From sequence record NC_041898.1: a DNA stretch of 42,765 nt. The stretch is one strand, 5' to 3'. Shown piece by piece: positions 1-40,043 of this stretch (its first letter is position 1; each line of letters opens with the position of its first letter). Both the position numbers and the translations under genes were made by a program. The notes under the pieces were generated by a model. That model was not told where the DNA came from and did not search any database. It saw nothing but the letters and a program-made list of their open reading frames with translations. Source of the DNA: Escherichia phage K1ind2.

Positions 1-1251
1 ATGAGTATTCAGCTATCAGCCCCTCAGGCGCTGTTCCTGAACTGCGATAACAAATACAAGGCCTATGTCGGCGGCTTCGGCAGCGGTAAGACGTTTGTAG
101 GCTGTCTGGACCTGCTTACGTTCATGCTTAAGCACCCCGGTACGCGCCTCGGCTACTTCGGCCCGACATACCCGGCTATCCGCGACATCTTCTACCCTAC
201 GTTTGAAGAGGCGGCTAACCTCCTGGGCCTCGATGTTCTGGTTAAATCTGGTGACAAAGAGGTCGTCGTTACGCGGGGCAAGACAGTAATTGGGACTGTA
301 ATCTGCCGCTCGATGGATAACCCAGGCTCTATCGTCGGCTTCAAAATCGCGGCTGCGGTCGTCGATGAGTTGGATGTACTGAGCCGCGAGAAAGCGGAAC
401 TGGCGTGGAACAAAATCGTTGCCCGTATGCGTCTGGTTATCCCTGGTGTAATTAACCACATCTCCGTTACCACGACACCGGAGGGGTTCAAGTTCGTATA
501 CGCCAAATTCAAAGAGAACCCGACGCCGAGTTACTCGATGGTCCAGGCCTCGACTCACGAGAACGCGAGATTCCTGCCGCCGGATTACATCAGCTCGCTG
601 ACAGAGACTTACCCTGCGCAGTTGATTAACGCGTATCTGAACGGCGAGTTCGTCAACCTTACTTCTGGCAGTGTCTACTACGCCTACGACCGACGAAAGC
701 ACCGCAGCAAAGAGACAATTCAACCTGGCGACACTCTGTACATCGGGCAGGACTTCAACGTTACGAAGAACGCCAGCGCCGTGTATGTGCAACGTAAAGA
801 CGGCTGGCACGCGGTGGCAGAACTGAAAGGTCTGTTTGACACGCCAGACACCGTGCGAGTAATTACTGAGAAGTGGAAGTCGCAAGGCCACCGCATCGTC
901 GTTTACCCCGACGCCAGCGGCAAGAACCGCAAAACCAACTCGGCGTCAATCTCTGATATTGCATTACTCCAGCAGGCCGGGTTCGATGTGCGGGCTAAAT
1001 CTGCAAACCCACCAGTTAAAGACCGTGTTTTAGCCGTGAATACCGCACTGGAAAAAGGTAAGCTGTGGGTTAACGACCACTTATGCCCGGAGATAGCCAA
1101 GACGCTGGAGCAACAGGCGTACGACGACAACGGAGAGCCAGCTAAAGACGGCATCATTGACCATATGGCGGATGCGCTTGGCTATCCTGTAGTTTACGAG
1201 ATGCCGGTGGTTAAACCAGTAATCAACATCCCGGTGACTTTCGCACTTTAA
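1..1251 (+). CDS. Terminase large subunit
   Basis: 416 aa ORF starting at window base 1; Walker A-like GGFGSGKT near N-terminus; followed directly by portal-sized ORF. Start may lie at or upstream of the window edge. Confidence 0.85.
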   Translation: MSIQLSAPQALFLNCDNKYKAYVGGFGSGKTFVGCLDLLTFMLKHPGTRLGYFGPTYPAIRDIFYPTFEEAANLLGLDVLVKSGDKEVVVTRGKTVIGTVICRSMDNPGSIVGFKIAAAVVDELDVLSREKAELAWNKIVARMRLVIPGVINHISVTTTPEGFKFVYAKFKENPTPSYSMVQASTHENARFLPPDYISSLTETYPAQLINAYLNGEFVNLTSGSVYYAYDRRKHRSKETIQPGDTLYIGQDFNVTKNASAVYVQRKDGWHAVAELKGLFDTPDTVRVITEKWKSQGHRIVVYPDASGKNRKTNSASISDIALLQQAGFDVRAKSANPPVKDRVLAVNTALEKGKLWVNDHLCPEIAKTLEQQAYDDNGEPAKDGIIDHMADALGYPVVYEMPVVKPVINIPVTFAL

Positions 1252-1263
1252 GAGGATTATTCA

Positions 1264-2745
1264 ATGTTAACTATGAACGGTCAGAATCAGGGTGTTAAGA
1301 CAAAACACCGGGAATGGCTGCATCACTTCGATAAATGGCAGAAGGTGCGCCACGCACTGGAGGGTGACCTTATCCGCTATCTGCGAAACGTCGGGAAGAA
1401 CGAGCCGGACCCAACTTATGCAGCCCAGCGCCAGGAAGAATACGAGAACGGCGCTATCTGCTACAATTTCACCAAGCGTACCCTGTCGGGTATGGTTGGC
1501 TCGGTAATGCGAAAAGACCCGGAGCAGATTATTCCACGTGAACTGGAATACCTGTTACGCAATGCCGATGGCTCGGGTGTCGGCCTGTGGCAGCACGCGC
1601 AGGATACGCTGATGGAGATTGACTCGGTGGGTCGTGGCGGTTTACTGGTGGATGCGCCGGAGACAGCGGCAGCGACGGCAGCCGAACAGAACGCCGGATT
1701 ATTAAACCCGGTCATCGCATTCTATACCGCAGAGAACATCATCAACTGGCGACTCACTCGCGTAGGCTCTGTTAACCGCGTTACGATGGTAGTGCTGCGT
1801 GAGGTATGGGAATATTCAGAACCTGGAGCCGAGTTTGAAACCAAGTTTGGGGAACAATACCGCGTTCTCGACTTGATTGACGGGCGCTACCGTCAGCGCA
1901 TATACCGATTCGATGCGGAAGGCGGCGCGCAAGACGAAGTAATAGAAATCTTCCCGGAACTGGGCGAACAGTTGCGCGGTAAAATCCCGTTCACGTTCAT
2001 CGGGGCCAGCAACAACGACGCGACGGTTGATGACGCGCCTTTGCTGCCGTTAGCTGAGCTTAATATCGGGCATTTTCGCAACAGCGCAGACAATGAGGAA
2101 TCTAGCTTCGTTGTAGGCCAGCCCACTCTGTTCATCGCCCCCGGTGAGAACATGAGCATGGTGCAATGGAAAGAGGCCAACCCCCACGGCGTACGTATGG
2201 GTTCACGTTCGGGCCACAATATCGGCTACGGCGGCAACGCGTTTCTGGTCCAGGCGGGAGAGAATAACCTCGCCAAACAGAACATGTTGGATAAAGAGAA
2301 TCAGGCAATCCAGATTGGTGCACAGCTTATCACGCCTACGCAGCAAATCACCGCCGAATCCGCTCGCCTGCAACGTGCTGCCGATACGTCCGTAATGACA
2401 ACCATTGCGCGTAACGTAAGCATGGCGTACACCGAAGCGTTGCGTTGGGTGGCTGCGATGCTGGGTCTACGCGAAGGAACGGAAATTGAGTTCAAGCTGA
2501 ATATGGAATTCTTCCTGCAACCAATGACCGCTCAGGACCGTGCGCAGTGGATGGCAGACATTAATGCCAGTTTACTACCGGCAACTGCTTACTACGCCGC
2601 GTTGCGTAAGGCTGGGGTAACTGACTGGACTGACGAGGAGATTACAACGGCTATTGAGGATGCACCTGCGCCGTTAGGCGCTGTTACTCAGGTAACTGGC
2701 GAGATTCCGCAGTCGGCGCAACAGCAGGATGCCACCCAGCAGTAA
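1264..2745 (+). CDS. Portal protein (putative)
   Basis: 493 aa ORF immediately downstream of terminase; size and position typical of portal; followed by hairpin terminator. Confidence 0.7.
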   Translation: MLTMNGQNQGVKTKHREWLHHFDKWQKVRHALEGDLIRYLRNVGKNEPDPTYAAQRQEEYENGAICYNFTKRTLSGMVGSVMRKDPEQIIPRELEYLLRNADGSGVGLWQHAQDTLMEIDSVGRGGLLVDAPETAAATAAEQNAGLLNPVIAFYTAENIINWRLTRVGSVNRVTMVVLREVWEYSEPGAEFETKFGEQYRVLDLIDGRYRQRIYRFDAEGGAQDEVIEIFPELGEQLRGKIPFTFIGASNNDATVDDAPLLPLAELNIGHFRNSADNEESSFVVGQPTLFIAPGENMSMVQWKEANPHGVRMGSRSGHNIGYGGNAFLVQAGENNLAKQNMLDKENQAIQIGAQLITPTQQITAESARLQRAADTSVMTTIARNVSMAYTEALRWVAAMLGLREGTEIEFKLNMEFFLQPMTAQDRAQWMADINASLLPATAYYAALRKAGVTDWTDEEITTAIEDAPAPLGAVTQVTGEIPQSAQQQDATQQ

Positions 2746-2755
2746 GTCCGCATAT

Positions 2756-2775
2756 AGCCCCGAAAGGGGCTTTCT
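2756..2775 (+). terminator. Rho-independent terminator-like hairpin
   Basis: agccccgaaaggggct stem-loop followed by T-rich tract; same hairpin sequence recurs at 4325-4345. Confidence 0.55.
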
Positions 2776-2781
2776 TATAGT

Positions 2782-3858
2782 ATGCTATTAACTTTAGCGC
2801 CACAGGGTTTATCTATGAGCTTACTTACATCGCTAATCAGCCACCAGATATGGCTGCAACGCACCGCATCCGGCGAAGTGAAAGACCTCGCGCCGTTCAT
2901 TAAGGAAATGCGGGACGAAATCAAACAGCAGGTGCTGCTATTCGGTGACGACGGGCGTAGCACCGCGCGACTGAATAAACTGTTACGCGACCTGGAAGAA
3001 GCACTGGCAGGACTTACAGGTGACTGGCGAACAAAGCTGACAGAAGACCTTAAGGAACTGGCAGCGTATGAGGCGGAGTGGAACGTAAAAACGCTGACGA
3101 CTAACGTCAACGCGGAATTTGTTACACCTACCGCCGAACAGGTGTGGGCCGCTGCCGAGTTTCAGCCCTTATCGTTAAGCGACAAACCTGTTGATTTCAC
3201 TAAGCTGATGTCAGGCTGGGGTGAAACCGAAGTCGCGCGCCTGGTAACGGGTGTTAAGATGGGCTTTGTACAAGGTCAAACCACGCGGCAGATTGTTAAG
3301 AATGTTGTTGGTGCCGGTGGGCTAACTGACATATCTGAGCGCACCGCGGCTACCGTCATCCGCACCGCGCTGTCTCACGTGTCCAACGAAGCCCGTAACG
3401 AGACGTACCGCCAGAACGACGACATCATCGAGAAGTACGAGTGGGTGTCAACGCTTGACAGCCGCACCAGTACGATTTGCAGGGTCAGAGACGGAATGAC
3501 GTGGGGAATCGGTAAAGGTCCGATGCCCCCCGCCCATCCTAACTGTCGAAGTACCACGGCCCCTGTAATCAGTTCCGAGTTCGACTTCCTCGATAAAGGC
3601 GCAAAACGCGCGGCTAAAGGCGCATACGGCGGTACTCAGGTAAGCGCGGACACCACTTATTACGAGTTCCTGAAACAACAGCCTGCATGGTTTCAGGACC
3701 AGGCGCTCGGCCCTGTTCGCGGTAAGATTTTCCGTAACAGCGGTATATCGCCGGAAGAGTTTCGCGTAATATCTGTAGATGGTTTCGGGAATCCGCTCAC
3801 GCTTAAACAGATGGCGGAACTCGATAAACGTGTTGCTGATTATCTGAAAGGGGATTAA
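2782..3858 (+). CDS. Head morphogenesis / minor head protein (putative)
   Basis: 358 aa ORF after portal, the position usually occupied by an SPP1 gp7 / Mu F-like protein; assignment by synteny only. Confidence 0.5.
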   Translation: MLLTLAPQGLSMSLLTSLISHQIWLQRTASGEVKDLAPFIKEMRDEIKQQVLLFGDDGRSTARLNKLLRDLEEALAGLTGDWRTKLTEDLKELAAYEAEWNVKTLTTNVNAEFVTPTAEQVWAAAEFQPLSLSDKPVDFTKLMSGWGETEVARLVTGVKMGFVQGQTTRQIVKNVVGAGGLTDISERTAATVIRTALSHVSNEARNETYRQNDDIIEKYEWVSTLDSRTSTICRVRDGMTWGIGKGPMPPAHPNCRSTTAPVISSEFDFLDKGAKRAAKGAYGGTQVSADTTYYEFLKQQPAWFQDQALGPVRGKIFRNSGISPEEFRVISVDGFGNPLTLKQMAELDKRVADYLKGD

Positions 3859-4319
3859 TGATGGGCTTTTTCAAAGTAACTGATGTACCGTCACGTCGCG
3901 TAGTCCAGTACGCCCGCGTGTCTGGCTCTGGTGAGAACGTGGTGTTTATTGATGATGAAAGTGTACTCGGTACACCCGAAGACGATATGCCGTTTGCAGA
4001 TAAAACCGGTATTGCGTTACCCGCGGCGGGCATGCTTTATGAAATTCCGTATCTGGCGGATGCAGGTGACGTGTATTTCTCGGTGCAACCGAAAGACACC
4101 GAGCTGGTCGACGGTAGCGCCACCATCACCGTCGAAGTTAAGGCGGGTAAAGCGCCGTGTGTACTGACCTGGTACAAAGACGGCAAGGAAGTGGTAAACG
4201 CCCCAGAAGAGGCTTTGTCTCTGACGGTTAATGCTGTCGGTGAATACTTCGTTAGAGTCACCGATGCCGATGGGGTAGAGGCCGTCAGTAAAGCGGCGAA
4301 GGTTACTAAGCCAGAATAA
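3858..4319 (+). CDS. Hypothetical structural protein with C-terminal Ig-like domain
   Basis: 153 aa; start overlaps previous stop (TAATG); C-terminal LTWYKDGKEV...GEYFVRVTDADG resembles Ig-like (Big_2-type) domains; motif also seen in ORF 7320-7670. Confidence 0.5.
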   Translation: MMGFFKVTDVPSRRVVQYARVSGSGENVVFIDDESVLGTPEDDMPFADKTGIALPAAGMLYEIPYLADAGDVYFSVQPKDTELVDGSATITVEVKAGKAPCVLTWYKDGKEVVNAPEEALSLTVNAVGEYFVRVTDADGVEAVSKAAKVTKPE

Positions 4320-4324
4320 ACTGA

Positions 4325-4345
4325 AGCCCCGAAAGGGGCTTTTTA
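4325..4345 (+). terminator. Rho-independent terminator
   Basis: gccccgaaaggggc hairpin followed by TTTTT. Confidence 0.6.
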
Positions 4346-4614
4346 GTGCCTGTGATTATTACAGTTATTCCACTCAATTGTAAATGTTGGAATAAACTAT
4401 TCGAATAGTCGACTTTTCACCAAAAATGTGCTAAGCTCCACCTGAGCTTGTGAAGTATGAACAAGCGACCGCGGCGCGGCAGGTAACGGAGCCGGACGTT
4501 AAGTCCGAGTGTAGTTACGCTGACGCGTTCGGAAGGGCCATACTCTATTGCTTGTGTAAAAAGTAACTGGTTTACTGAGATTACGCCGTTTCTATGTTTA
4601 AATGATAAGTACTA

Positions 4615-4643
4615 GCGCCCCGCTTTAAGGCGGGGCTTTACTT
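4615..4643 (+). terminator. Terminator-like hairpin upstream of spanin genes
   Basis: gcgccccgc-ttta-aggcggggc stem-loop followed by T-rich run, about 20 nt before the Rz-like RBS (aaagggggaaacATG). Confidence 0.4.
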
Positions 4644-4661
4644 ATCGAGAAAGGGGGAAAC

Positions 4662-5048
4662 ATGAATCTTAAAGCAACTGTCGTAGCGGGAGCATGTTTC
4701 ATCATCCTGACTTACGCACACGGCATCTACCAGTATCGCATCGGCTGGAACGAAGGCCGGGCCAATCTCGTTTCACAGCAACAGCAGAAAGCACAGGCTG
4801 AGTTAGCGAAGAAAACACAACGGCAGCAGCAGGATGAATCAAAGGCCGCGGCTGCTGACAGCGAAGGCAAGACGAAATCAGAGGTGATTACCCGTGAAGT
4901 CGTTAAGTACATTAAAACGCCTGGTCGCAGCGTGTGCACTTTTGACCCTGAGCGCGTGCAGCTCAAGTCCCGCGCCGTCGCAAACGCCAATTCCATCCCC
5001 GGATATGACGATGATGCAGCCGCCGTGCAAACTGGCCCCGCCAAGTAG
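4662..5048 (+). CDS. i-spanin (Rz-like)
   Basis: 128 aa; N-terminal transmembrane segment (VVAGACFIILTYAHGIY) followed by Q/K/E-rich predicted coiled coil; embedded +1-frame lipoprotein ORF - the classic Rz/Rz1 overlapped architecture. Confidence 0.7.
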   Translation: MNLKATVVAGACFIILTYAHGIYQYRIGWNEGRANLVSQQQQKAQAELAKKTQRQQQDESKAAAADSEGKTKSEVITREVVKYIKTPGRSVCTFDPERVQLKSRAVANANSIPGYDDDAAAVQTGPAK

Positions 5049-5239: not shown

Positions 5240-5941
5240 ATGAATCGTTTTTTACATTATCCGTTCCAGGAAGAAGCTGGGGCAGAAGATAAAGCCGGTG
5301 GCGGTGATGCGCCGAAAATGTTCACCGCGGAAGAAGTTCAGGCGCTGATTGAGAAAGAAGTTGCCGGGCTTAAGGCCAATCAGGAAGCATTACTGGCGGA
5401 GAAGAAAGAAGCCGCCCGTAAAGCAAGAGATGCCGAAGAAGAACGGCAGCGCGCGCACCAGGAGGCGTTAAAAGCCGCTGGTAAGATGGACGAGTTCGAA
5501 AAGACGATTCGTAGCCAGTATGACCCGGTGTTAGCCGAGAAAGATGGTCGCATCTCTAAAATGGCAGAGCGCATCCTCGGTAGCGAACGTAAAGCGGTGT
5601 TAGGCTCTTTCGCAGGTGACTTTATTACCCCGGAAGCAGTGGACATTCTTGCACCGTTCGTTAAGACTGAGTTCGAAGGCGATGATGTGGTTACTAAGTT
5701 TGTCGGCGCAGATGGCAACGTAATCACGACTGACCCGGAACAGTTCCGCAAATACCTGCGCGAACACAAAGCGTTTTCGCATTTGATTAAAGCAAATGCA
5801 GCTTCCGGCGGCGGGGCTTCCGGTGGCAAAGGCGGCGGGGCCGCACCAGCGTTTAAAGACATGAGTGAAGCGGAGCGTTTAGCTCTGTATAAATCGAACC
5901 CTGCCGAATTTGAACGGCAACTTAAAGCCCTGAGGAAATAA
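5240..5941 (+). CDS. Scaffolding protein (putative)
   Basis: ORF track gives 5186-5941 with a TTG start; ATG at 5240 has a GGGGA SD-like sequence upstream and is preferred. Alpha-helical, charged, E/K/A-rich protein immediately upstream of the major capsid gene. Confidence 0.5.
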   Translation: MNRFLHYPFQEEAGAEDKAGGGDAPKMFTAEEVQALIEKEVAGLKANQEALLAEKKEAARKARDAEEERQRAHQEALKAAGKMDEFEKTIRSQYDPVLAEKDGRISKMAERILGSERKAVLGSFAGDFITPEAVDILAPFVKTEFEGDDVVTKFVGADGNVITTDPEQFRKYLREHKAFSHLIKANAASGGGASGGKGGGAAPAFKDMSEAERLALYKSNPAEFERQLKALRK

Positions 5942-13585: not shown

Positions 13586-13777
13586 TCACTTCTCGTTAAC
13601 ATTCGAGTTGCACGCCCAGATTAAAATAAAGACCCACGGCAGCAGCGCCCAGCCAAGAAACAGATTAGCCATGAATATCGCTAACTTCGCTTTATGGTTA
13701 CGGAAGTACGCAACCAGGAAAGGCGCAAAATAAACGAGAAGTGCAAACAGAATTAAGGAAACTGGTAAACTTGACAT
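13586..13777 (-). CDS. Small inner-membrane protein (superinfection-immunity Imm-like)
   Basis: ORF track 13586-13792; second ATG (13777) has GGAGGG SD and is preferred (63 aa). Two predicted TM helices; YFAPFLVAYFRNHKAKLAIFMANLFLGWALLPW resembles the Imm_superinfect family signature as I recall it. Confidence 0.55.
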   Translation of the reverse strand: MSSLPVSLILFALLVYFAPFLVAYFRNHKAKLAIFMANLFLGWALLPWVFILIWACNSNVNEK

Positions 13778-13807
13778 TTTAAATCCCTCCATTGTTGGTG
13801 TAAGTGA

Positions 13808-13836
13808 ATAGTACCCTATTATATTGGGGTGTGCAA
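13808..13836 (-). promoter_or_regulatory. Sigma70-type promoter (TTGCAC-N17-TACTAT) driving the minus-strand island
   Basis: Minus-strand TTGCAC (plus 13831-13836), 17-nt spacer, TACTAT (plus 13808-13813); 35 of 37 nt identical to the plus-strand promoter at 36087-36123. Confidence 0.6.
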
Positions 13837-26913: not shown

Positions 26914-27198
26914 CTAACTATAATAGCTAGCTATTAGGTCGTCAACCTGTTTAAACGAACCAACGACAAAAACATTCGCACCACGTTTACGCATCCGCTC
27001 ATGTTCCCGTAGCTGGTGCGGGTCTGGCTTCGTGTTCTCGTCTTTCTTAACCTCGACGAACCAGACTATGCCGCCGGGGAGAATTACCAGCAGGTCTGGG
27101 GCGCCGGAACGCCCCTCGTAGGAGAGTTTGCGAACGAGGCCGCCAAGGGCCTCGAATCGGTCTTTTGCGTATTTCTGTACGCGGCCCTCTTTAGTCAT
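26914..27198 (-). CDS. VRR-NUC domain nuclease (PD-(D/E)xK)
   Basis: ORF track 26914-27213; ATG at 27198 (ATGA overlap with upstream small ORF) preferred. Motif GAPDLLVILPGGIVWFVEVKK matches the D...E-x-K core of VRR-NUC proteins. Confidence 0.6.
   Translation of the reverse strand: MTKEGRVQKYAKDRFEALGGLVRKLSYEGRSGAPDLLVILPGGIVWFVEVKKDENTKPDPHQLREHERMRKRGANVFVVGSFKQVDDLIASYYS
26917..26945 (-). promoter_or_regulatory. Sigma70-type promoter (TTGACG-N17-TATAGT), copy 1 of 3
   Basis: Minus-strand -35 TTGACG (plus 26940-26945), 17-nt spacer, -10 TATAGT (plus 26917-26922); about 31-bp element conserved with 30471-30499 and 32569-32597. Confidence 0.6.
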
Positions 27199-29790: not shown

Positions 29791-30417
29791 TTAACGGCGA
29801 CGACGTTCGCGGCGCGGTGCTTCATCCTCTTCATCGTCTTCAAGGTCATCGACGCTTGCGGCTACTTTAGAACCGCCAAACGCTTTACCTTCACCAACGT
29901 ATTTAATAGCCAGCAGGTTAACGCCGAGGACTTTGTATTTCTGGCTGAACCAGATTTCAACGCTTACGTTAGCGACGCAGCCGCTGTAAACCTGTTCACC
30001 TTCAATCTGTTCGCCGTCTACATTGAAGTCCTGTTCTACCTGAGTCTCGCCTTTTTTAGAGGTTACAATCAGTGGCTGTTTCTGTGCCTTCGCCTTGAAG
30101 TAGAAGCCTTCCGGGAAGTCTTCAAACGGATTGTCGCGCTCGGCAATGTCTTTAATCGCACATTTATCCATGTGCTTACCTTCGCCGTAGTTTGACTTCA
30201 TCCACTTCTCAGCGGCAGCTGCGCCCAACGCTTCTTCAACCACAGCGTAAACGGTGTCGTAGAGCGCGTCGATTTGTGCGTGGTCAGACGGCAGGATGAT
30301 AGTCGCGCTGTACTGGCCTTTAGTGATTGAGCCATCATCGTTTTCACGGTCTTTTTCGCGTTCGAATACGTTAACCCATGCAGTGTTTACTTTACGCAGA
30401 TTCAGTTTAATACCCAT
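29791..30417 (-). CDS. Single-stranded DNA-binding protein (T7 gp2.5 / DUF2815-like, putative)
   Basis: 208 aa; acidic C-terminal tail (DDLEDDEEDEA) then basic end; position next to polymerase and Cas4-like nuclease. Confidence 0.5.
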   Translation of the reverse strand: MGIKLNLRKVNTAWVNVFEREKDRENDDGSITKGQYSATIILPSDHAQIDALYDTVYAVVEEALGAAAAEKWMKSNYGEGKHMDKCAIKDIAERDNPFEDFPEGFYFKAKAQKQPLIVTSKKGETQVEQDFNVDGEQIEGEQVYSGCVANVSVEIWFSQKYKVLGVNLLAIKYVGEGKAFGGSKVAASVDDLEDDEEDEAPRRERRRR

Positions 30418-30470
30418 CGTGATTTCTCGCTTTTCAGTTTACTCCGGGAACTGCCCGGCCAGTGATTAGA

Positions 30471-30499
30471 ACTATAATAGCTAACTATTCAGGTGTCAA
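30471..30499 (-). promoter_or_regulatory. Sigma70-type promoter (TTGACA-N17-TATAGT), copy 2 of 3
   Basis: Minus-strand -35 TTGACA (plus 30494-30499), 17-nt spacer, -10 TATAGT (plus 30471-30476). Confidence 0.6.
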
Positions 30500-30503
30500 C
30501 ACT

Positions 30504-31769
30504 TTATTCCAAATCTTCTTCACTAACCTGATTCCACTCAGGACGTTTGTCGTCTGCCGTTGCGACACATGGTGCGCCTGGCTTACGGGTAATAAACGGC
30601 TCAAGCGCTGCCATCTCATCCGCAGAAAGAACTTTTGCTGCCTCCGTAGGGGACATCAATACCTCTTTTTTGAGAATGTCGCCGTGTGACACTTCAATCG
30701 CATCGGCATCTTTCCACGCACGATTACCCGGGCGGCCTTCTACCAGTTTGTACCCTGGCACTTTCTTACCTGAATGCAATGTGGCGGACATCGCTTTCTC
30801 AACCTTGTCGATGTGCTGGCGCAACAGCGGCAACTTCTCATACTCAACTACGAGTTGCTCCGTCGTCAGTTCCAGCACAAAGTCGTCTTCAAGTTCTTCC
30901 GCCAGTACAGAATTAACCGTCTTTGTACGCGCGGCACACTGTTCAGAGAACCGGCACCACTGGCAACCATCGACCGACGGTTTAAAGTCCGACGCTTTCA
31001 GGTTCTTCTTTCCACGGAAATAAGCATCAAGCGCTAACAGTGCCCGTTTCTGTGCGAACTTAGCGAACAGTTCCAGACCTTCGACCGAGATGTCCCACTC
31101 TGACGCACCCCCCGCGTACGGCTGGAAGATGACCAGGCGCACTACTGTGATGTTATAACGTCTCTTGAGTCGGCGATAAACACCGAGAGCGTAAAGCATA
31201 AGCTGCTTGTTTTCTTTCGCTTCAACACGATGCCGTCCAGTTTTAAGGTCGCCAATAATGAGCATGTGCTCGTCGGTGTTCGCCAGTTCCTGAACGGCAA
31301 CAATGTCGGCGGTTCCGAATGTCTCAACGCCTTCGTAGCCTGGATGCAATACCTCAGTAAGATTGACACGCATCTCGAGTTTGGCGTAAGTCGCTACATC
31401 GATAACAGCTTTGCAGTGGTCGGTGTACTTGCGCACCTGCTCAATCATGTCAGCCGTAATCAGTACCGCGCCTTTCATCGGGCTGCTTAGCGCCTTAATC
31501 TGGCCTTTACCCTCATCCAGCACGTAAGCACCTACTTCGCGCTCTAACGGCAACGCAGTGCCTTTGATGTACTGGTTTAAGTGCATCTCAGCTATGGTGT
31601 GCATAGCCGTCCCTAATACGGCGGCTTTACCTGACGTGTTAGGAATATCTTTTTCACAGGCCAGTGATGCACTGCACGCCAGCCACTTTTTAGCACCAGA
31701 CGGCGACAGTAAGGCGTGCACATCGTTATTGCCGCCGCGTTCCTTTAAAATCATACCCTGCTCTCCCAC
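30504..31769 (-). CDS. PD-(D/E)xK nuclease with Cas4-like cysteine cluster (DUF2800-like exonuclease)
   Basis: 421 aa; GTADIVAV and IIGDLKTG (D...D-x-K core), QLMLYAL (QxxxY), C-terminal CQWCRFSEQC plus an N-terminal Cys, as in Cas4/RecB-family nucleases. Confidence 0.7.
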   Translation of the reverse strand: MGEQGMILKERGGNNDVHALLSPSGAKKWLACSASLACEKDIPNTSGKAAVLGTAMHTIAEMHLNQYIKGTALPLEREVGAYVLDEGKGQIKALSSPMKGAVLITADMIEQVRKYTDHCKAVIDVATYAKLEMRVNLTEVLHPGYEGVETFGTADIVAVQELANTDEHMLIIGDLKTGRHRVEAKENKQLMLYALGVYRRLKRRYNITVVRLVIFQPYAGGASEWDISVEGLELFAKFAQKRALLALDAYFRGKKNLKASDFKPSVDGCQWCRFSEQCAARTKTVNSVLAEELEDDFVLELTTEQLVVEYEKLPLLRQHIDKVEKAMSATLHSGKKVPGYKLVEGRPGNRAWKDADAIEVSHGDILKKEVLMSPTEAAKVLSADEMAALEPFITRKPGAPCVATADDKRPEWNQVSEEDLE

Positions 31770-32023
31770 TGGTCAATTAAATGTCGTGTCTGGTGATGGC
31801 AATGCATGACCCACCCGTACATCGACTCGAAGACATAAAAGTCAGGTTTGGCGAAAGTCGTGCGCTTAATCTGCGACACGTGACGGCCTATATCTTTAGG
31901 CCGTGGTACTTTTCCTAAGTACGCCATCTCTTCCATCTGGTGCGAGCCAGACGGCGCACGTAACAGCCATAGCGCCTCTGTGTTATCCCGCCGGTCAACG
32001 GCGCGGTATAGTTGGTAAATCAT
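31751..32023 (-). CDS. Hypothetical protein
   Basis: 90 aa; overlaps start of nuclease gene by 19 nt; contains CHHQTRH. Confidence 0.4.
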   Translation of the reverse strand: MIYQLYRAVDRRDNTEALWLLRAPSGSHQMEEMAYLGKVPRPKDIGRHVSQIKRTTFAKPDFYVFESMYGWVMHCHHQTRHLIDQWESRV

Positions 32024-32066
32024 AATCCCGACCCTCGGTTAAAGCGGCCCGAAGGCCGCGGGATAG

Positions 32067-32537
32067 TTATTCTTCTTCGAAATACTTGTTCTTGATTGCT
32101 GTCAGGCGCTCCAGATACTCAGCCAGGTCTTCGTCTTTAATCGCTGCAATCTTCATCTTCTTTCCGGTAAACTCTTCCAGCAGTTCGTCAGAATCGTCGC
32201 ACGCGGCATCGCTTGGGCCTTCGTTAATCGCATCGTCGATAGCCTGAATCTGGTCGCGCAGAGACTGGTAATCGACTTCTTCTTTCTCTTCTTCCGGCTC
32301 TGGCGTTGGCTCCTCTACTTTAGCTTTACGCGGCTTGCGCTTCGGCTTCTCTTCTTCTGCTGGTTTAGTGTCAATGGTGTCTTCACCTTCTACCGGGATT
32401 TCTTTCGTTACTTCTTTCACAACAGTAGGCTCTATTGTTGCAGTTTTGGCAACGACAACTTGTTTCGCACTGTTCGCAGCAATCAGTTCATGTGCAACTA
32501 CGAAACGTTCCAGTAATACTAAGAATTTCTCTAACAT
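32067..32537 (-). CDS. Hypothetical acidic early protein
   Basis: 156 aa; GAGGAG SD before ATG; highly acidic/lysine-rich middle; first gene downstream of promoter copy 3. Confidence 0.45.
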   Translation of the reverse strand: MLEKFLVLLERFVVAHELIAANSAKQVVVAKTATIEPTVVKEVTKEIPVEGEDTIDTKPAEEEKPKRKPRKAKVEEPTPEPEEEKEEVDYQSLRDQIQAIDDAINEGPSDAACDDSDELLEEFTGKKMKIAAIKDEDLAEYLERLTAIKNKYFEEE

Positions 32538-32568
32538 TATTTATTCTCCTCTCGTTTGGTATGGTCTA

Positions 32569-32597
32569 ACTATAATAGCGAACTATTCACTTGTCAA
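32569..32597 (-). promoter_or_regulatory. Sigma70-type promoter (TTGACA-N17-TATAGT), copy 3 of 3
   Basis: Minus-strand -35 TTGACA (plus 32592-32597), 17-nt spacer, -10 TATAGT (plus 32569-32574). Confidence 0.6.
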
Positions 32598-32661
32598 CGG
32601 GCTTTTCTAAAATAATTAATATGGTACTATTCACATATCAACTGACTAAGGAGTAATTGAC

Positions 32662-32877
32662 ATGCAACCATCTGAACTAGGCATCCGTGTAGAACAGCGC
32701 CGTAAAGAACTCGGTATTTCCCAGCGCAGTCTGGCTGTCCTGGCCGGCGTTTCCCAGGGTGCAATTAACCAGCTTGCACTCGGGGTAACGCGGGACGTCC
32801 GCCCAGCAACACTGTTTAAACTGGCGGAAGTGCTAGAGGTAGATGCCAAGTGGCTGGCGTTCGGTGAAGGGGCTTAA
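32662..32877 (+). CDS. XRE-family helix-turn-helix transcriptional regulator (Cro/CI-like)
   Basis: 71 aa; HTH signature LGISQRSLAVLAGVSQGAINQLALG; AAGGAG SD 8 nt before ATG; lone plus-strand gene inside the minus-strand module, divergent from promoter copy 3. Confidence 0.75.
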   Translation: MQPSELGIRVEQRRKELGISQRSLAVLAGVSQGAINQLALGVTRDVRPATLFKLAEVLEVDAKWLAFGEGA

Positions 32878-32894
32878 CGCCCCTTTCTTTTTAC

Positions 32895-35162
32895 CTATTC
32901 CAAATCTTCCTCGGTCACTGTAAGCATTTCATTCGGTTCGTATATTGTCTTCGGAATCTTGTTGTCCGTTATTCGGGTATTCAATCTGTAACGGCCCGGG
33001 ATTATCTGATTGTTTTCGTCCGTACCAGGTACAAGATACCCCGCCTCAACCATTTTCTTAATCTTTCCGCGTTCTATGGCTTCTTTGGAGTTGAACGCCT
33101 TCGCGTTGGGGTCAGACTGTGCGAGCTTATTTGCCGCGGCTACCGTGATACCTTCGTTGCCGTTGTAGGTTCCTTCCGCCAGTTCAAACGCCGCCAGTAT
33201 CGTGGCTTCCGAACTGTTGACGGCGTTCTCCATGGTTCTACGTACGTTTTCTTTACCTTCCTTAGTCAGTCCTTCTTCCCGCTCTTTCTCCTCGTCGGTC
33301 TTGAACGGTTCGAAGCCCCACGGCATAAGCACAAGCGCTTTGTGCGGCTCAGGCAGGTCGAGGTTAACGGTTGTGCCGTATTCCTCTGTGCTACCGAGGA
33401 ACTCAACCGCGCGGTATTCTTTCGGTGGCGGGGCTTCGCGGAACTGTACCGACTCAAGCACCATACCAACCGTCTTCTGTTGCGGCCCATGCTTAAATTT
33501 AGAGTGGTATACATTTATCTGACGGTCTGTCGCGCGTTCGATTGTCAGCTCCACATCGACGCCAGCGTACAGCGCACCACTACCTCGGGCTTTCTTTCCG
33601 CCCTTCGGTGTATGGTGTACAACGCCTACCGCAGCTTTAGTCGCGTCACGTACTTCTTTCAGGATGGCGATAACCTTACCCATGCCGATTGCCGTTGATG
33701 AACTGTTCTCGTCGAACTTATCAATCGTCAGGGCTAGCGTCTGGTTGAGGGTGTCGAACGCAACCATGCCGATGGGTTCGTCACCCGCAGTTTCACGCAT
33801 CAACTTAATCAGGCTTTTCAGTTTTCCGACTTCGCCCATGTCGATGACATGTACATAATCTTTACCTTCCTCGCTATACTTAGCTGCGAGCGCATCGATA
33901 CGGGTGCGTGTAGCTGCGCCGCCCTCACCGTCGATATAAAAATGGTGGCAACGCTGCGTATCTGCCCCCGCAAACCGGTATCCGGCGGCGCTCAGGTACA
34001 TCATCCCCAGCGTATAGAACGATTTGTACGTGCCGGATTCCCCGACAATATCCCAGATACAATCTGACGGCATGTACCCTTCAACGACGAAATCCGCCTT
34101 TACCGGTTCCGGTAACTCGTCATCCTCTGAGTCCTCATCATCTTCCAGGTCGTCGAGGCTGCATGAAACAGATTCACGTGCACCCCATCCGATGGCCTCT
34201 GCGACTTCACTGAACGGCAGCCCCGTCGCATCGCACGCATACTTCCACACCTCTTTCGGTGACATGCCTTCGGTCGCCGTAATGTCAGTGTCGTGAATCA
34301 TGGTTACGTTCGGCGCCTCATATCCCTCTCGCGGGAAGCACAGCAGGAAGTCATCCGGGCGCGGCGTCGGGTCGCTGTAGTTTTCTGCGTGTTCTGGCGT
34401 AGCTGGCATCTTAAGGCCTCGTGGCGTCATGATACCGCCATACTCGAACGCCAGTGCCTCGAACGCGTCGGTAAACGCGGTGCGCAGTTCTTCCGGTATC
34501 TGGTAATCCGATGCGCTGCTAACGTCAACGGCGGGGATGCCTTCCAGTAACTCGTCCGGGTCAATCAGGTCGTTGCGGCGTGACCAGATAACGGTAGAGC
34601 CAACCGGAGGCAGGTACATCGGTTGCGAAAGAGTGAACCCGCTGCGGTCAGCACCCATGCTTTTGAAGAAGTGTTCCAGCAATCCATGGCGAACACGGAT
34701 GATGTCACCACCTTCGACCGGACGGGCCAGCGGCATGACGACGCGAAAGCGCGGGGACTCGTCGGTATGTGATGCCGTGGTATAGATACACAGGCCCCGG
34801 CGGCTGCGTTTAACTAAGCGCACCGCTTCCTGATACTCTTCTGGTGTTGCGCTGTCGAAGTCCAGATACGCCAGCGACGATTTGCTTACAGACGCGTCAC
34901 AGCGATAGAAAAAGCCTTTACGCGCTTGCTTAAAGTCGGCGGTTTCCGGGTCTTTTACAGTGCTGTGCGTCGAGTCGCACGCGGCGGTGATATAACCGGG
35001 CGCGGTCTTCGGGTTAATTCCGTCACGGACAGCATCGAGTGGCTGGATTAACTCTTTCAGGTCGTCCAGTGTTGCCGTGTGTGTGGTTCTGACGTTTATA
35101 TCCTTTTTCTCAGCCCGCGCGTTGCGACGCGACCACGAGTAGGATAAAATTACATCGGACAT
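32895..35162 (-). CDS. Primase-polymerase / helicase fusion protein (AEP-like N-terminus, RecA-like ATPase C-terminus)
   Basis: 755 aa; N-terminal LAYLDFDSA (DxD) and TASHTDE consistent with an AEP/prim-pol domain; central Walker A GESGTYKS and Walker B-like VAFDTL. Confidence 0.65.
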   Translation of the reverse strand: MSDVILSYSWSRRNARAEKKDINVRTTHTATLDDLKELIQPLDAVRDGINPKTAPGYITAACDSTHSTVKDPETADFKQARKGFFYRCDASVSKSSLAYLDFDSATPEEYQEAVRLVKRSRRGLCIYTTASHTDESPRFRVVMPLARPVEGGDIIRVRHGLLEHFFKSMGADRSGFTLSQPMYLPPVGSTVIWSRRNDLIDPDELLEGIPAVDVSSASDYQIPEELRTAFTDAFEALAFEYGGIMTPRGLKMPATPEHAENYSDPTPRPDDFLLCFPREGYEAPNVTMIHDTDITATEGMSPKEVWKYACDATGLPFSEVAEAIGWGARESVSCSLDDLEDDEDSEDDELPEPVKADFVVEGYMPSDCIWDIVGESGTYKSFYTLGMMYLSAAGYRFAGADTQRCHHFYIDGEGGAATRTRIDALAAKYSEEGKDYVHVIDMGEVGKLKSLIKLMRETAGDEPIGMVAFDTLNQTLALTIDKFDENSSSTAIGMGKVIAILKEVRDATKAAVGVVHHTPKGGKKARGSGALYAGVDVELTIERATDRQINVYHSKFKHGPQQKTVGMVLESVQFREAPPPKEYRAVEFLGSTEEYGTTVNLDLPEPHKALVLMPWGFEPFKTDEEKEREEGLTKEGKENVRRTMENAVNSSEATILAAFELAEGTYNGNEGITVAAANKLAQSDPNAKAFNSKEAIERGKIKKMVEAGYLVPGTDENNQIIPGRYRLNTRITDNKIPKTIYEPNEMLTVTEEDLE

Positions 35163-35220
35163 GTTATATTTCCTTCAGCAAGTAATTTGGCCTCGGCGTT
35201 CACCGCGTCGGGGCTTTCTT

Positions 35221-35496
35221 TTATTCCAGGTCGCGGGAGATATTACCCTCGGGCACCAACACTTTTCCAATACTTCTCGCTTTCTCTGTAATAGGCGTCG
35301 CTCTTGTTGCCCGATAAAACTTTCCTTTATTAAGAATCTCACCATGTCGCTCGAGCACATCTAAAGCATGTTTGATCGGGTTTACACCGTAATTATCCAA
35401 CCGGTATCTCCGAAGCCCGTCTACCGTAAAAGCGCCGTTCGCTTCGGTCAGTCTGCGTGCACACATTAATATGTGTTTCTGGAATTTAGTTAGCAT
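35221..35496 (-). CDS. Hypothetical protein
   Basis: ORF track 35221-35541; internal ATG at 35496 with GGAGAA SD preferred (91 aa). Confidence 0.4.
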   Translation of the reverse strand: MLTKFQKHILMCARRLTEANGAFTVDGLRRYRLDNYGVNPIKHALDVLERHGEILNKGKFYRATRATPITEKARSIGKVLVPEGNISRDLE

Positions 35497-35665
35497 CTTT
35501 AACGTTCTCCTTAATCCACGCCTCCACAGTAGCGCGGTCAAAGGTACCTGGCTGACGGTAGCCGTTGATAACGCGGCAACACTCCGGGAACTTTCCTGAC
35601 CGAAGCCAGCGATTAAGAGTCATAGGGGAAACCCCGATTAAGTCTGCTACTTCTTTCTGTGTCAT
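35486..35665 (-). CDS. Small HTH DNA-binding protein (AlpA/excisionase-like)
   Basis: ORF track 35486-35695; ATG at 35665 with GAGAGGG SD preferred. TQKEVADLIGVSPMTLNRWLRSGKFPE is a typical AlpA/MerR-type HTH. Confidence 0.6.
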   Translation of the reverse strand: MTQKEVADLIGVSPMTLNRWLRSGKFPECCRVINGYRQPGTFDRATVEAWIKENVKDAN

Positions 35666-35736
35666 TTTACACGCCCTCTCTATCAAGTGAAACAACTATA
35701 ACACCTACAATAGACAAACACAACCTATTGACAAAA

Positions 35737-35765
35737 TAAAATGTAGCTGTAAAATCAACGTATCG
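35737..35765 (+). promoter_or_regulatory. Candidate sigma70 promoter (TTGACA-N16-TAAAAT) in long intergenic region
   Basis: TTGACA at 35737-35742, 16-nt spacer, TAAAAT; about 380 nt upstream of the first plus-strand early gene. Confidence 0.4.
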
Positions 35766-36086
35766 AATGGCTTTAGTTAAGAATTACTTAGAAACAATAT
35801 TCTTAAGTCTCGGGTACTTAAAGCCCCGCCATAAAGCGGGGCGCTAAATAGTACTCTTGGTAACGTTAGTATCTAAGTTTCCTCAAAGTAACAGCAAGTG
35901 GCAAGAAAGCCCCCGTCTATTTAAATTTTACCCTCCTTCATAAGACACTGATAATTAAAAGTTTCTATAGTTGCCGTAAACGTGGAAGAGAGTACTTCAC
36001 TTCGCTGGGGTGGGCTAACGCCCACCCACTGCGTTGCGTACTCTTTTAAGAAACGAAAGAATCACAACGGCAACGTAACTATTCTC

Positions 36087-36115
36087 TTGCACACCCCAAC
36101 ATAATAGGATACTAT
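36087..36115 (+). promoter_or_regulatory. Sigma70-type early promoter (TTGCAC-N17-TACTAT)
   Basis: -35 TTGCAC 36087-36092, 17-nt spacer, -10 TACTAT 36110-36115; about 35 nt upstream of ATG 36150; near-identical copies at 13808-13836 (minus) and 37387-37415. Confidence 0.65.
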
Positions 36116-36149
36116 TCACTTATCGAGACGAGACAGAGGAGTGAGGGTT

Positions 36150-37386: not shown

Positions 37387-37415
37387 TTGCACACTAAGAT
37401 AGAATAGGCTACTAT
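37387..37415 (+). promoter_or_regulatory. Sigma70-type early promoter (TTGCAC-N17-TACTAT)
   Basis: -35 TTGCAC 37387-37392, 17-nt spacer, -10 TACTAT 37410-37415; same family as 36087-36115. Confidence 0.6.
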
Positions 37416-37445
37416 TCATTTACACAAGCGAGAGGAGAGACAGAG

Positions 37446-38324: not shown

Positions 38325-38617
38325 TGTCGTTAGCAACTGACATCCTGAAACGAAGCGGCCTTGCGCCGCTGTCGCCGAGAGCGAATACGCGTATACACAA
38401 GCGCCGCCGTAATGCACTGTACCCCGAGATTCAGGCCAGACGCAAAGCGGTCCGCGCCTGTGGATTCCAGAACGGGAAGGCTGTGAATCTCGGTGAGTTT
38501 AAAACACAGGAACGCGCAGCAATCGCTAATCGGCTATTTAATTACTGGAAATCGTTGGGATACGATGATATTCCGACGAAACCGCAGAGACGCCAATACA
38601 TCTGGAGACATAAATAA
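38324..38617 (+). CDS. Hypothetical basic protein
   Basis: 97 aa; R/K-rich; overlaps upstream stop. Confidence 0.45.
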   Translation: MSLATDILKRSGLAPLSPRANTRIHKRRRNALYPEIQARRKAVRACGFQNGKAVNLGEFKTQERAAIANRLFNYWKSLGYDDIPTKPQRRQYIWRHK

Positions 38618-38692
38618 ACAACTATTAGGATAATTCCTACCCGTGGTATCCTCCAGTTACTGCATACTTAATACGCACCTGGAGGATTCATC

Positions 38693-39994: not shown

Positions 39995-40014
39995 CTGTTT
40001 TCTGTAATGACTAG

Positions 40015-40043
40015 TTGACTATTACCTTAGACCCTATTATATT
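40015..40043 (+). promoter_or_regulatory. Candidate sigma70 promoter (TTGACT-N17-TATATT)
   Basis: TTGACT 40015-40020, 17-nt spacer, TATATT 40038-40043; about 35 nt upstream of ATG 40077. Confidence 0.5.

Follow-up and report, generated by a model that had tools for sequence, protein, structure and literature searches.

The divergent region at xre

The genome sequence of Escherichia phage K1ind2 (NC_041898.1; 42,765 nt, the whole of which is called the window below) carries a 124 bp gap at 32538–32661, between the leftward gene ORF34 and the rightward gene xre. The latter encodes a 71 aa protein with a single Cro/CI-type helix-turn-helix (HTH) domain. Two sigma-70-type promoters lie back to back in the gap with their −35 regions 4 bp apart, and each is overlapped by a copy of a 14 bp inverted repeat, AATAG-N4-CTATT, that is found at promoters elsewhere in the window. 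A preliminary description of this DNA, made from the letters alone, had proposed divergent promoters between an acidic-protein gene and an HTH gene, and all of these elements were recovered. Coordinates are collected in Table 1.

The leftward promoter (copy 3) ranks in the top three sigma-70 matches of the window's right half (11/12). The xre promoter has the −10 element TACTAT (32625–32630), the first part of TACTATTCA at 32625–32633, and the TGg ahead of it (TG at 32622–32623) makes this an extended −10; there is no good −35. The −10 element is 31 nt upstream of the xre ATG, which is provided with an AAGGAG ribosome-binding site. The centres of the two predicted operators of the gap are separated by 44 bp, or about four helical turns, and their cooperative occupancy is possible. 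In every related Kagunavirus locus, an exact or one-mismatch inverted repeat (dyad) precedes xre by about 88 bp. The combination of a one-mismatch operator on xre's own −10 with an adjoining exact operator is shared by Kagunavirus and Pantoea phage AH01.

An intrinsic terminator overlaps the xre stop codon (32866–32886), making xre a one-gene transcription unit. The next gene, which encodes a helicase-primase, is convergent with xre in Kagunavirus and Jerseyvirus. An XRE-type antitoxin (HipB/HigA-like) was considered for xre and rejected, as its own terminator follows the gene, the next gene is the convergent helicase-primase, and there is no adjacent co-transcribed toxin. The weak matches of the XRE protein to HipB and HigA in the PDB reflect the common HTH only. 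In AH01, Serratia phage Tsm2 and VLCpiS11a, xre and the helicase-primase gene point the same way and xre heads their operon. The helicase-primase gene has the inverted orientation in Kagunavirus and Jerseyvirus (compare window 32662–35162), where leftward transcription through it meets no terminator before reaching xre and would therefore continue antisense through xre.

The window is identical (100%) to Escherichia phage K1ind3 (GU196281; Kagunavirus, Guernseyvirinae) at positions 30000–36000, and shows just 90% identity to it at positions 1–3845. The 696 bp HNH-endonuclease ORF4 of K1ind3 is missing from the window (about 3858–4320 compared), and the gene layout of this differing left part is as in K1G. 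Taken as a whole, the window is a close mosaic relative. Phages of the genus Kagunavirus are called lytic in genome papers (fBC-Eco01, Golestan). Members of Kagunavirus and Jerseyvirus are often isolated and have been proposed for therapy against E. coli and Salmonella. No integrase, CI-size repressor or RNA polymerase is present among the annotated genes of K1ind3, K1G and fPoEco01, in agreement with the earlier view that the region is not an obvious lysogeny switch.

A 14 bp inverted repeat at promoters in three registers

The preliminary description took the heptamer ACTATTC as the recurring unit. It occurs 10 times in the window compared with 4.08 ± 2.06 expected, and 1 in 100 shuffles attains 10, so the enrichment is real, but modest. 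Either the heptamer or the variant GCTATTAG is present in all three leftward promoter copies (26917–26945, 30471–30499 and 32569–32597), as had been reported. Alignment of the occurrences shows that ACTATTC is the right arm of the 14 bp inverted repeat AATAG-N4-CTATT, and this dyad is the true unit. A dimeric regulator acting on half-sites had been suggested, and both the symmetry of the dyad and the kinship of XRE with 434 Cro (see below) agree with it; the half-sites, however, are not paired as ACTATTC with GAATAGT but as AATAG-N4-CTATT, i.e., GAATAG/TAATAG ... CTATTC.

Exact copies of the dyad number six (13807, 26922, 30476, 32574, 36103 and 37403), against 0.01 expected. With up to one mismatch allowed there are 11, against 0.89 expected; the additional five are at 32618, 40010, 4404, 38613 and 2776, the last two being weaker candidates. 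Among all 5-N(0–8)-5 palindromes of the window, AATAG-N4-CTATT is the commonest. All sites are intergenic except that at 26922, which falls within the last VRR-NUC codons and precedes the next operon. Sigma-70-type promoter hexamers are overlapped by nine of the 11 sites, in three registers.

In class A (26922, 30476 and 32574, all leftward), with the arrangement TTGACA-N4-AATAGnnnnCTATT-ATAGT, the dyad fills the spacer from about −25 to −12, and its final T is the first base of the −10. In class B (13807 leftward; 36103 and 37403 rightward), with the arrangement TTGCAC-N10-AATAGnnTACTATT, it covers about −19 to −6, and the −10 element TACTAT is inside its right arm. The xre promoter belongs to class B but lacks the −35; it has a TGn extension, and arm position 5 is changed from G to T. 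In class C (4404 and 40010), the −35 hexamer T[TC]GACT begins at dyad position 6, which places the dyad at about −40 to −27. Both class C sites come just after terminators and before late-region genes, and their dyads are degenerate. The presence of the dyad in both orientations and in three registers indicates that it is an element in its own right, and not the by-product of one duplicated promoter.

The motif has already been published, but mislabelled as promoters of a phage RNA polymerase (RNAP). The fBC-Eco01 paper lists seven copies (PP1–PP7), with consensus tgAATAGTa-ccTATTat-T, as 'phage RNAP promoters'; they are the same repeated sequence at orthologous places, and the xre promoter site is PP5. 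Similarly, the vB_EcoS-Golestan paper gives seven PHIRE promoters. Neither paper mentions the dyad symmetry, the sigma-70 context or a link to an HTH protein. Recognition by a phage-encoded RNAP is scarcely credible, given that the annotation of the three relatives named above holds no gene for such an enzyme, that the symmetric dyad is embedded in sigma-70 −35/−10 pairs with 17 bp spacing, and that PHIRE detects only repeated 20-mers.

Conservation of the inverted repeat

The XRE protein was used as query to fetch 37 Kagunavirus loci. Nearly all of these have exact dyads at orthologous positions, in which the arms are fixed and the centres vary (CTAA, CGAA, TTCG, TCCG, GGAT, GGCT and others). 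Conservation across 56 distinct class A promoters is at least 90% in both arms, about 50% at the central four bases, and 40–70% from the −35 to the dyad. The spacer of a sigma-70 promoter is ordinarily free of sequence constraint. A like pattern was seen in 37 distinct class B promoters, except at the bases set by the −10. Natural arm variants occur at the symmetric positions 2 and 13 (ACTAG and CTAGT); for example, at the class C site Kagunavirus has ACTAG-TTGA-CTATT where Jerseyvirus SE2 has AATAG-TTGA-CTAGT. The class C site at 40010 is conserved in 22 distinct Kagunavirus sequences, and its version in SE2 is AATAGTTGACTAGT. A protein dimer with two-fold symmetry would be expected to leave just such a footprint.

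A shared sequence of this kind could also arise without any dedicated binder, if a few strong sigma-70 promoter cassettes had merely been copied and pasted within these phages and from one to another. Whole cassettes have clearly been re-used (class A is present as three near-identical copies, and fPoEco01 has one class B copy more, with an inserted gene), and class B flanking bases such as CACCCCAA are conserved too. However, the dyad is the only element common to classes A, B and C, at three registers and in both orientations, the class A arms have been held while the centre and the bases from the −35 to the dyad vary, and symmetry has been maintained even in the variants at positions 2 and 13, all of which makes cassette spread on its own a distinctly improbable explanation.

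Similarity of the XRE protein to 434 Cro

XRE matches Pfam HTH_3 over residues 11–65 (48.7 bits, cut-off 23; E 7.9e-13), confirming the family to which it had been assigned, and its PHROGs category is transcription regulation. The closest solved structure is that of phage 434 Cro (E 4.5e-7, residues 6–68), to which it is 41% identical over 63 residues. Both proteins are 71 aa long, and XRE has a 2-residue insertion in the loop between helices 3 and 4. Weaker PDB matches include the 434 repressor and the N-terminal domain of P22 C2 (E ~0.006). The gene is conserved in every Guernseyvirinae genome examined, and names given to the protein in GenBank vary ("transcriptional repressor", "DicA", hypothetical). 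The glutamine opening helix 2 and that opening helix 3 are invariant over six divergent XRE orthologues. For 434, the residue that reads the outermost adenine is the helix-3 glutamine.

The operators of 434 are 14 bp, of which the outer 5 + 5 bases are contacted, while the inner four are uncontacted and variable (PMC1636474). Operators of 14 bp with conserved 5 bp arms and a variable 4 bp centre are thus common to both systems, and in both they overlap sigma-70 promoter elements. The half-sites differ, being ACAA(G) in 434 and AATAG here. The CI repressor, tripartite OR/OL arrays, integrase and lysogeny decision of 434 have no counterpart here, according to the annotation of K1ind3, K1G and fPoEco01; in place of the tripartite arrays there are single operators scattered over about ten promoters, in three registers. 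P22 is a more distant parallel. Its 18 bp operators have contacted arms ending in ..AAG, then four uncontacted bases, then CTT..; these arms are longer than those described here and different in sequence, and XRE is far closer in sequence to 434 Cro than to P22 C2/Cro.

The lambdoid Enterobacter phage CobraSix has an XRE homologue (39% identity) in the cro position, between CI-like and cII genes. During the lytic phase of lambdoid phages, early transcription is damped as Cro accumulates, and the role proposed below for XRE would be the same turn-down of early promoters. The K1ind2 gene differs in being monocistronic, with its own terminator, and in lacking a divergent CI gene.

A proposed shut-off circuit

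The reading preferred here, to which a probability of about 0.55 is given, is that XRE is a Cro-type repressor that binds AATAG-N4-CTATT over host-type promoters, forming a shut-off circuit without a lysogeny switch. From the dyad itself, its enrichment, conservation and position at promoters, the homology of XRE to 434 Cro and the co-occurrence of xre with the dyad, we infer that XRE is the binder and that binding represses, with an order of occupancy and a timing as follows. Transcription of xre would begin at its own extended −10 promoter and stop at its own terminator. The XRE dimer would sit on 14 bp operators in the manner of 434, contacting the two 5 bp arms and leaving the 4 bp centre uncontacted, and in each register the bound dimer would cover a core promoter element, excluding RNA polymerase. 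Rising XRE would fill the perfect operators first, and early and middle transcription would be turned down. Among the first-filled promoters would be those of the replication block, driving ORF34 and exonuclease, DUF2815 and DNA polymerase, and methylase and helicase, together with those that serve the small early genes and the superinfection-immunity/nuclease operon, in which the gene at 13586–13792 matches Pfam Imm_superinfect. Filling of the one-mismatch sites (xre promoter, two class C promoters) would follow, and this order would bring about negative autoregulation and a graded turn-down. This would be the job of Cro in lambdoid lytic growth, minus the CI partner and the lysogeny decision.

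The position of the dyads bears on whether the binder represses or activates. Centred at about −12, −18 or −33, a dimer lies over the −10 or −35 and would keep RNA polymerase off the promoter. It is improbable that XRE, or any other protein binding the dyad, is an activator or dual regulator, which would turn on late genes at the class C sites, or at the other classes act as a sigma-appropriation or MerR-like factor. Help from such a factor is conceivable at the imperfect class B hexamers (TTGCAC/TACTAT) and at the weak class C −10 (TAAGCT), and the location of both class C sites, past terminators and ahead of late-region genes, would be suitable. However, class A promoters are near-consensus (11/12), have an optimal 17 bp spacer and need no activator. 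MerR-type activation needs spacers of 19–20 bp; this hallmark is absent, as class A spacers measure 17 bp, with a few variants of 18 bp, and the optimal 17 bp spacing argues against MerR-like activation.

If XRE is the repressor, the XRE made in an infected cell might also silence early and replication promoters of superinfecting relatives that bear the same operator, giving an immunity-like system without CI, although this extension of its role is doubtful. If true, the operator variants (AATAG, AATAC, and the forms of TS6 and VLCpiS11a) would define homoimmunity groups at the level of transcription among virulent Guernseyvirinae, which would bear on the mutual interference of such phages in therapeutic cocktails, and Guernseyvirinae would be descendants of a temperate 434-like ancestor of which only the Cro arm was kept. 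The circuit supplies a testable wiring diagram of one 71 aa protein, one 14 bp site and about ten promoters, and the strong sigma-70 promoters with their putative matched repressor are a possible compact regulatory part. No general principle is changed, as the logic of 434 and lambda Cro would be reused minus the lysogeny half.

Identity of the binding protein

Among the universally conserved non-structural genes of the Guernseyvirinae lineages examined, xre is the sole recognisable gene for a sequence-specific DNA-binding protein. Helix 3 of XRE was compared with the half-site in 69 further loci and seven full genomes. The dyad arm is AATAG in the Kagunavirus, Jerseyvirus and Tsm2 clades, where helix 3 is QGAINQ, QSLITH and QGMLNH, respectively. 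The divergent XRE lineages have altered dyads or none: AH01 (QGGIGH) has AATAC, TS6 (QSAISH) has a TATTAC-N4-CTAATA-like dyad, and the VLCpiS11a group (QSALSF) has no such dyad. Tsm2 carries exact AATAG dyads at the orthologous class A and B promoters, and in AH01 there are five exact AATAC-N4-GTATT dyads, with a further copy, at one mismatch, on the xre promoter of that phage. This distribution is suggestive, being compatible with XRE as the specificity factor, but is no proof.

The AATAG arm is retained in phages of three enterobacterial genera despite XRE identities of just 42–51%, which would suit recognition of the dyad by a DNA-binding protein of the hosts (E. coli, Salmonella, Serratia). 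A host protein is nevertheless very unlikely, since the half-sites of AH01 and of Salmonella phage TS6 are variant, though TS6 and the Jerseyviruses have the same host genus. We know of no enterobacterial regulator with an AATAG-N4-CTATT site, and neither the ARG box nor the FNR or CRP site agrees with it in both sequence and spacing.

xre had been described as a lone HTH gene, which is incorrect. A second small HTH gene (35486–35668, minus strand) encodes an HTH_17 protein and heads the leftward operon to which the helicase-primase gene also belongs. Searches by tblastn found HTH_17 in Kagunavirus and Jerseyvirus only, with no homologue in the complete genomes of Tsm2, AH01 and TS6. The dyad might be a true operator for another phage protein, either HTH_17 or a conserved small protein, with XRE regulating something else. 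HTH_17 is a genuine DNA-binding fold, and between K1ind3 and Jerseyvirus SE2 it is better conserved than XRE (70% and 51% identity, respectively), AATAG being common to both genera.

Several points weigh against XRE as a repressor acting at the dyad, and the first three also favour another protein. The same AATAG arm goes with three different helix-3 sequences (QGAINQ, QSLITH and QGMLNH), so the correspondence between helix 3 and half-site is imperfect. The Tsm2 promoter beside xre has just a three-mismatch dyad and there is no good dyad in that neighbourhood, though good ones are present elsewhere in the genome. Several conserved small proteins have no assigned function and could be unrecognised DNA binders. 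In addition, the promoter assignments are consensus matches with spacing to start codons, not mapped transcription starts. The AF2 single-sequence model of XRE (helices 5–17, 21–27, 32–39, 48–58 and 62–66) is of low confidence (mean pLDDT 62). Finally, no binding, expression, promoter-mapping, transcriptome or repressor studies were found in the literature on Guernseyvirinae, Kagunavirus and Jerseyvirus, which consists of genome-announcement-type papers and PHIRE lists.

In spite of these points, another phage protein as the binder is considered unlikely. The complete genomes of Tsm2 and AH01 lack HTH_17, yet exact dyads have been kept; a 14 bp dyad of 5 + 4 + 5 is the signature of the 434 Cro family, which includes XRE; and xre adjoins one operator and bears another on its own promoter. 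To our knowledge, HTH_17 (excisionase/AlpA-type) proteins are not known for dyads of this form. The earlier reading was partly right: the idea of a dimeric regulator is supported, and XRE is probably that regulator.

Table 1. Coordinates of genes, predicted promoters, operators and related features in the window.
Feature	Position	Strand	Description
class C promoter-like site, TCGACT-17-TAAGCT, TGn extended −10	4404–4437	+	one-mismatch operator AATAGTCGACTTTT at 4404–4417 over −35
weak candidate site TATAGTATGCTATT, one mismatch	2776–2789	+	past a terminator, before head-morphogenesis gene; in fPoEco01, not in K1G
perfect palindrome ACTATTCGAATAGT	4396–4409		half-sites everted; right arm is the left half of the 4404–4417 site
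class B promoter, TTGCAC-17-TACTAT	13807–13836	−	exact operator 13807–13820 over −10; upstream of superinfection-immunity, phosphoesterase and kinase genes
class A promoter, TTGACG-17-TATAGT	26917–26945	−	exact operator AATAGCTAGCTATT at 26922–26935; upstream of methylase and helicase genes
class A promoter, TTGACA-17-TATAGT	30471–30499	−	exact operator 30476–30489; upstream of DUF2815 and DNA polymerase genes
ORF34	32067–32537	−	acidic protein, 156 aa, pI 4.5, 41 D/E and 23 K/R; PHROG 3127, function unknown; first gene from promoter copy 3
leftward promoter copy 3 (class A), TTGACA-17-TATAGT	32569–32597	−	promoter scan 11/12; exact operator AATAGCGAACTATT at 32574–32587 fills spacer
operator-like site AATATGGTACTATT, one mismatch, on xre promoter	32618–32631	+	essentially invariant in 34 distinct Kagunavirus intergenic sequences; 'PP5' in fBC-Eco01 Table S2
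xre	32662–32877	+	71 aa single-domain Cro/CI-type HTH protein; proposed operator-binding repressor
intrinsic terminator over xre stop codon	32866–32886	+	terminator scan: 8 bp stem, 5 GC pairs, then CTTTTT
second small HTH gene	35486–35668	−	60 aa HTH_17 excisionase/MerR-like protein; Pfam HTH_17 E 4.9e-9; PHROG 66; rival binder candidate
solitary ACTATTC half-site	36078–36084	+	just upstream of −35 of the 36087 promoter; kept in K1G, ACTATTT (one change) in fPoEco01
class B promoter, TTGCAC-17-TACTAT	36087–36116	+	exact operator 36103–36116 over −10; heads rightward small early gene block
class B promoter	37387–37416	+	exact operator AATAGGCTACTATT at 37403–37416
weak candidate site AATAAACAACTATT, one mismatch	38613–38626	+	spacer of weak promoter-like match before holin genes
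class C promoter, TTGACT-17-TATATT	40010–40043	+	after lysis-cassette terminator; one-mismatch operator ACTAGTTGACTATT at 40010–40023 over −35

The palindrome at 4396 and the nearby leader

The perfect 14 bp palindrome upstream of the spanin genes, which the preliminary description had linked to the promoter sites, is present, but it is not an equivalent operator. Its arms, CTATTC|GAATAG, are everted relative to those of an operator, CTATT coming first and AATAG following after 2 bp, and one Cro-type dimer could not read it in the manner of the promoter sites. As an operator it was also rejected on the sequence at the left partner position (4388–4392), TGGAA, which is no match. Perfect palindromes of 14 bp number three in the window, compared with 2.6 expected, so that mere occurrence of one is nothing unusual. 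The 32-mer around this one (GGAATAAACTATTCGAATAGTnGACTTTTCAC) is found exactly in 29 viral contigs and also in K1G and fPoEco01, and this exact conservation shows that the palindrome is not due to chance. The orthologous sequence of SE2 is not palindromic. One contig, IMGVR_UViG_2595698663_000001 (42,665 bp), has a Jerseyvirus-type XRE together with the exact Kagunavirus 32-mer, which suggests that the late-promoter region has been exchanged between Kagunavirus and Jerseyvirus.

The site at 4404 is upstream of a leader of about 190 nt, which is followed by the spanin, scaffold and capsid genes. The whole non-coding region between the head-decoration and spanin genes, at 4320–4661, is about 340 bp and consists of a terminator (4324–4341), the promoter-like site (4409–4437), the leader, and a strong terminator (4617–4636). 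Conservation of the leader extends in part to Jerseyvirus SE2, Pantoea phage AH01 and TS6, and Rfam gave no match when the whole window and the 4300–4700 leader were scanned. The layout is like that of lambda PR'-6S RNA-tR', where a promoter and a short terminated RNA precede the late genes, and by this analogy 4320–4661 may be an antitermination or small-RNA unit.

Other observations

A second long non-coding region, of 445 bp, is at 35696–36140. It carries a near-consensus rightward promoter, TTGACA-16-TAAAAT, at 35728–35755, followed by GC-rich hairpins (at about 35822–35846 and 36005–36029) and then the class B promoter at 36087; this could be an origin region, or another unit that yields a short transcript. 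The HTH_17 gene has a leftward promoter-like site (TTGTCA-16-TATTGT, 35707–35734, minus strand) with AATAG and CTATT 11 bp apart, overlapping its −35 and −10. As an operator, AATAG-N11-CTATT was rejected, as its spacing is wrong for one Cro-type dimer; it may have arisen by chance.

In fPoEco01, an extra class B promoter-operator, the same as that at 13807 in the window, occurs at 5591–5604, before the inserted minus-strand gene gp07. The insertion lies between the decoration and spanin genes, and suggests that the promoter-operator cassette travels with inserted genes.

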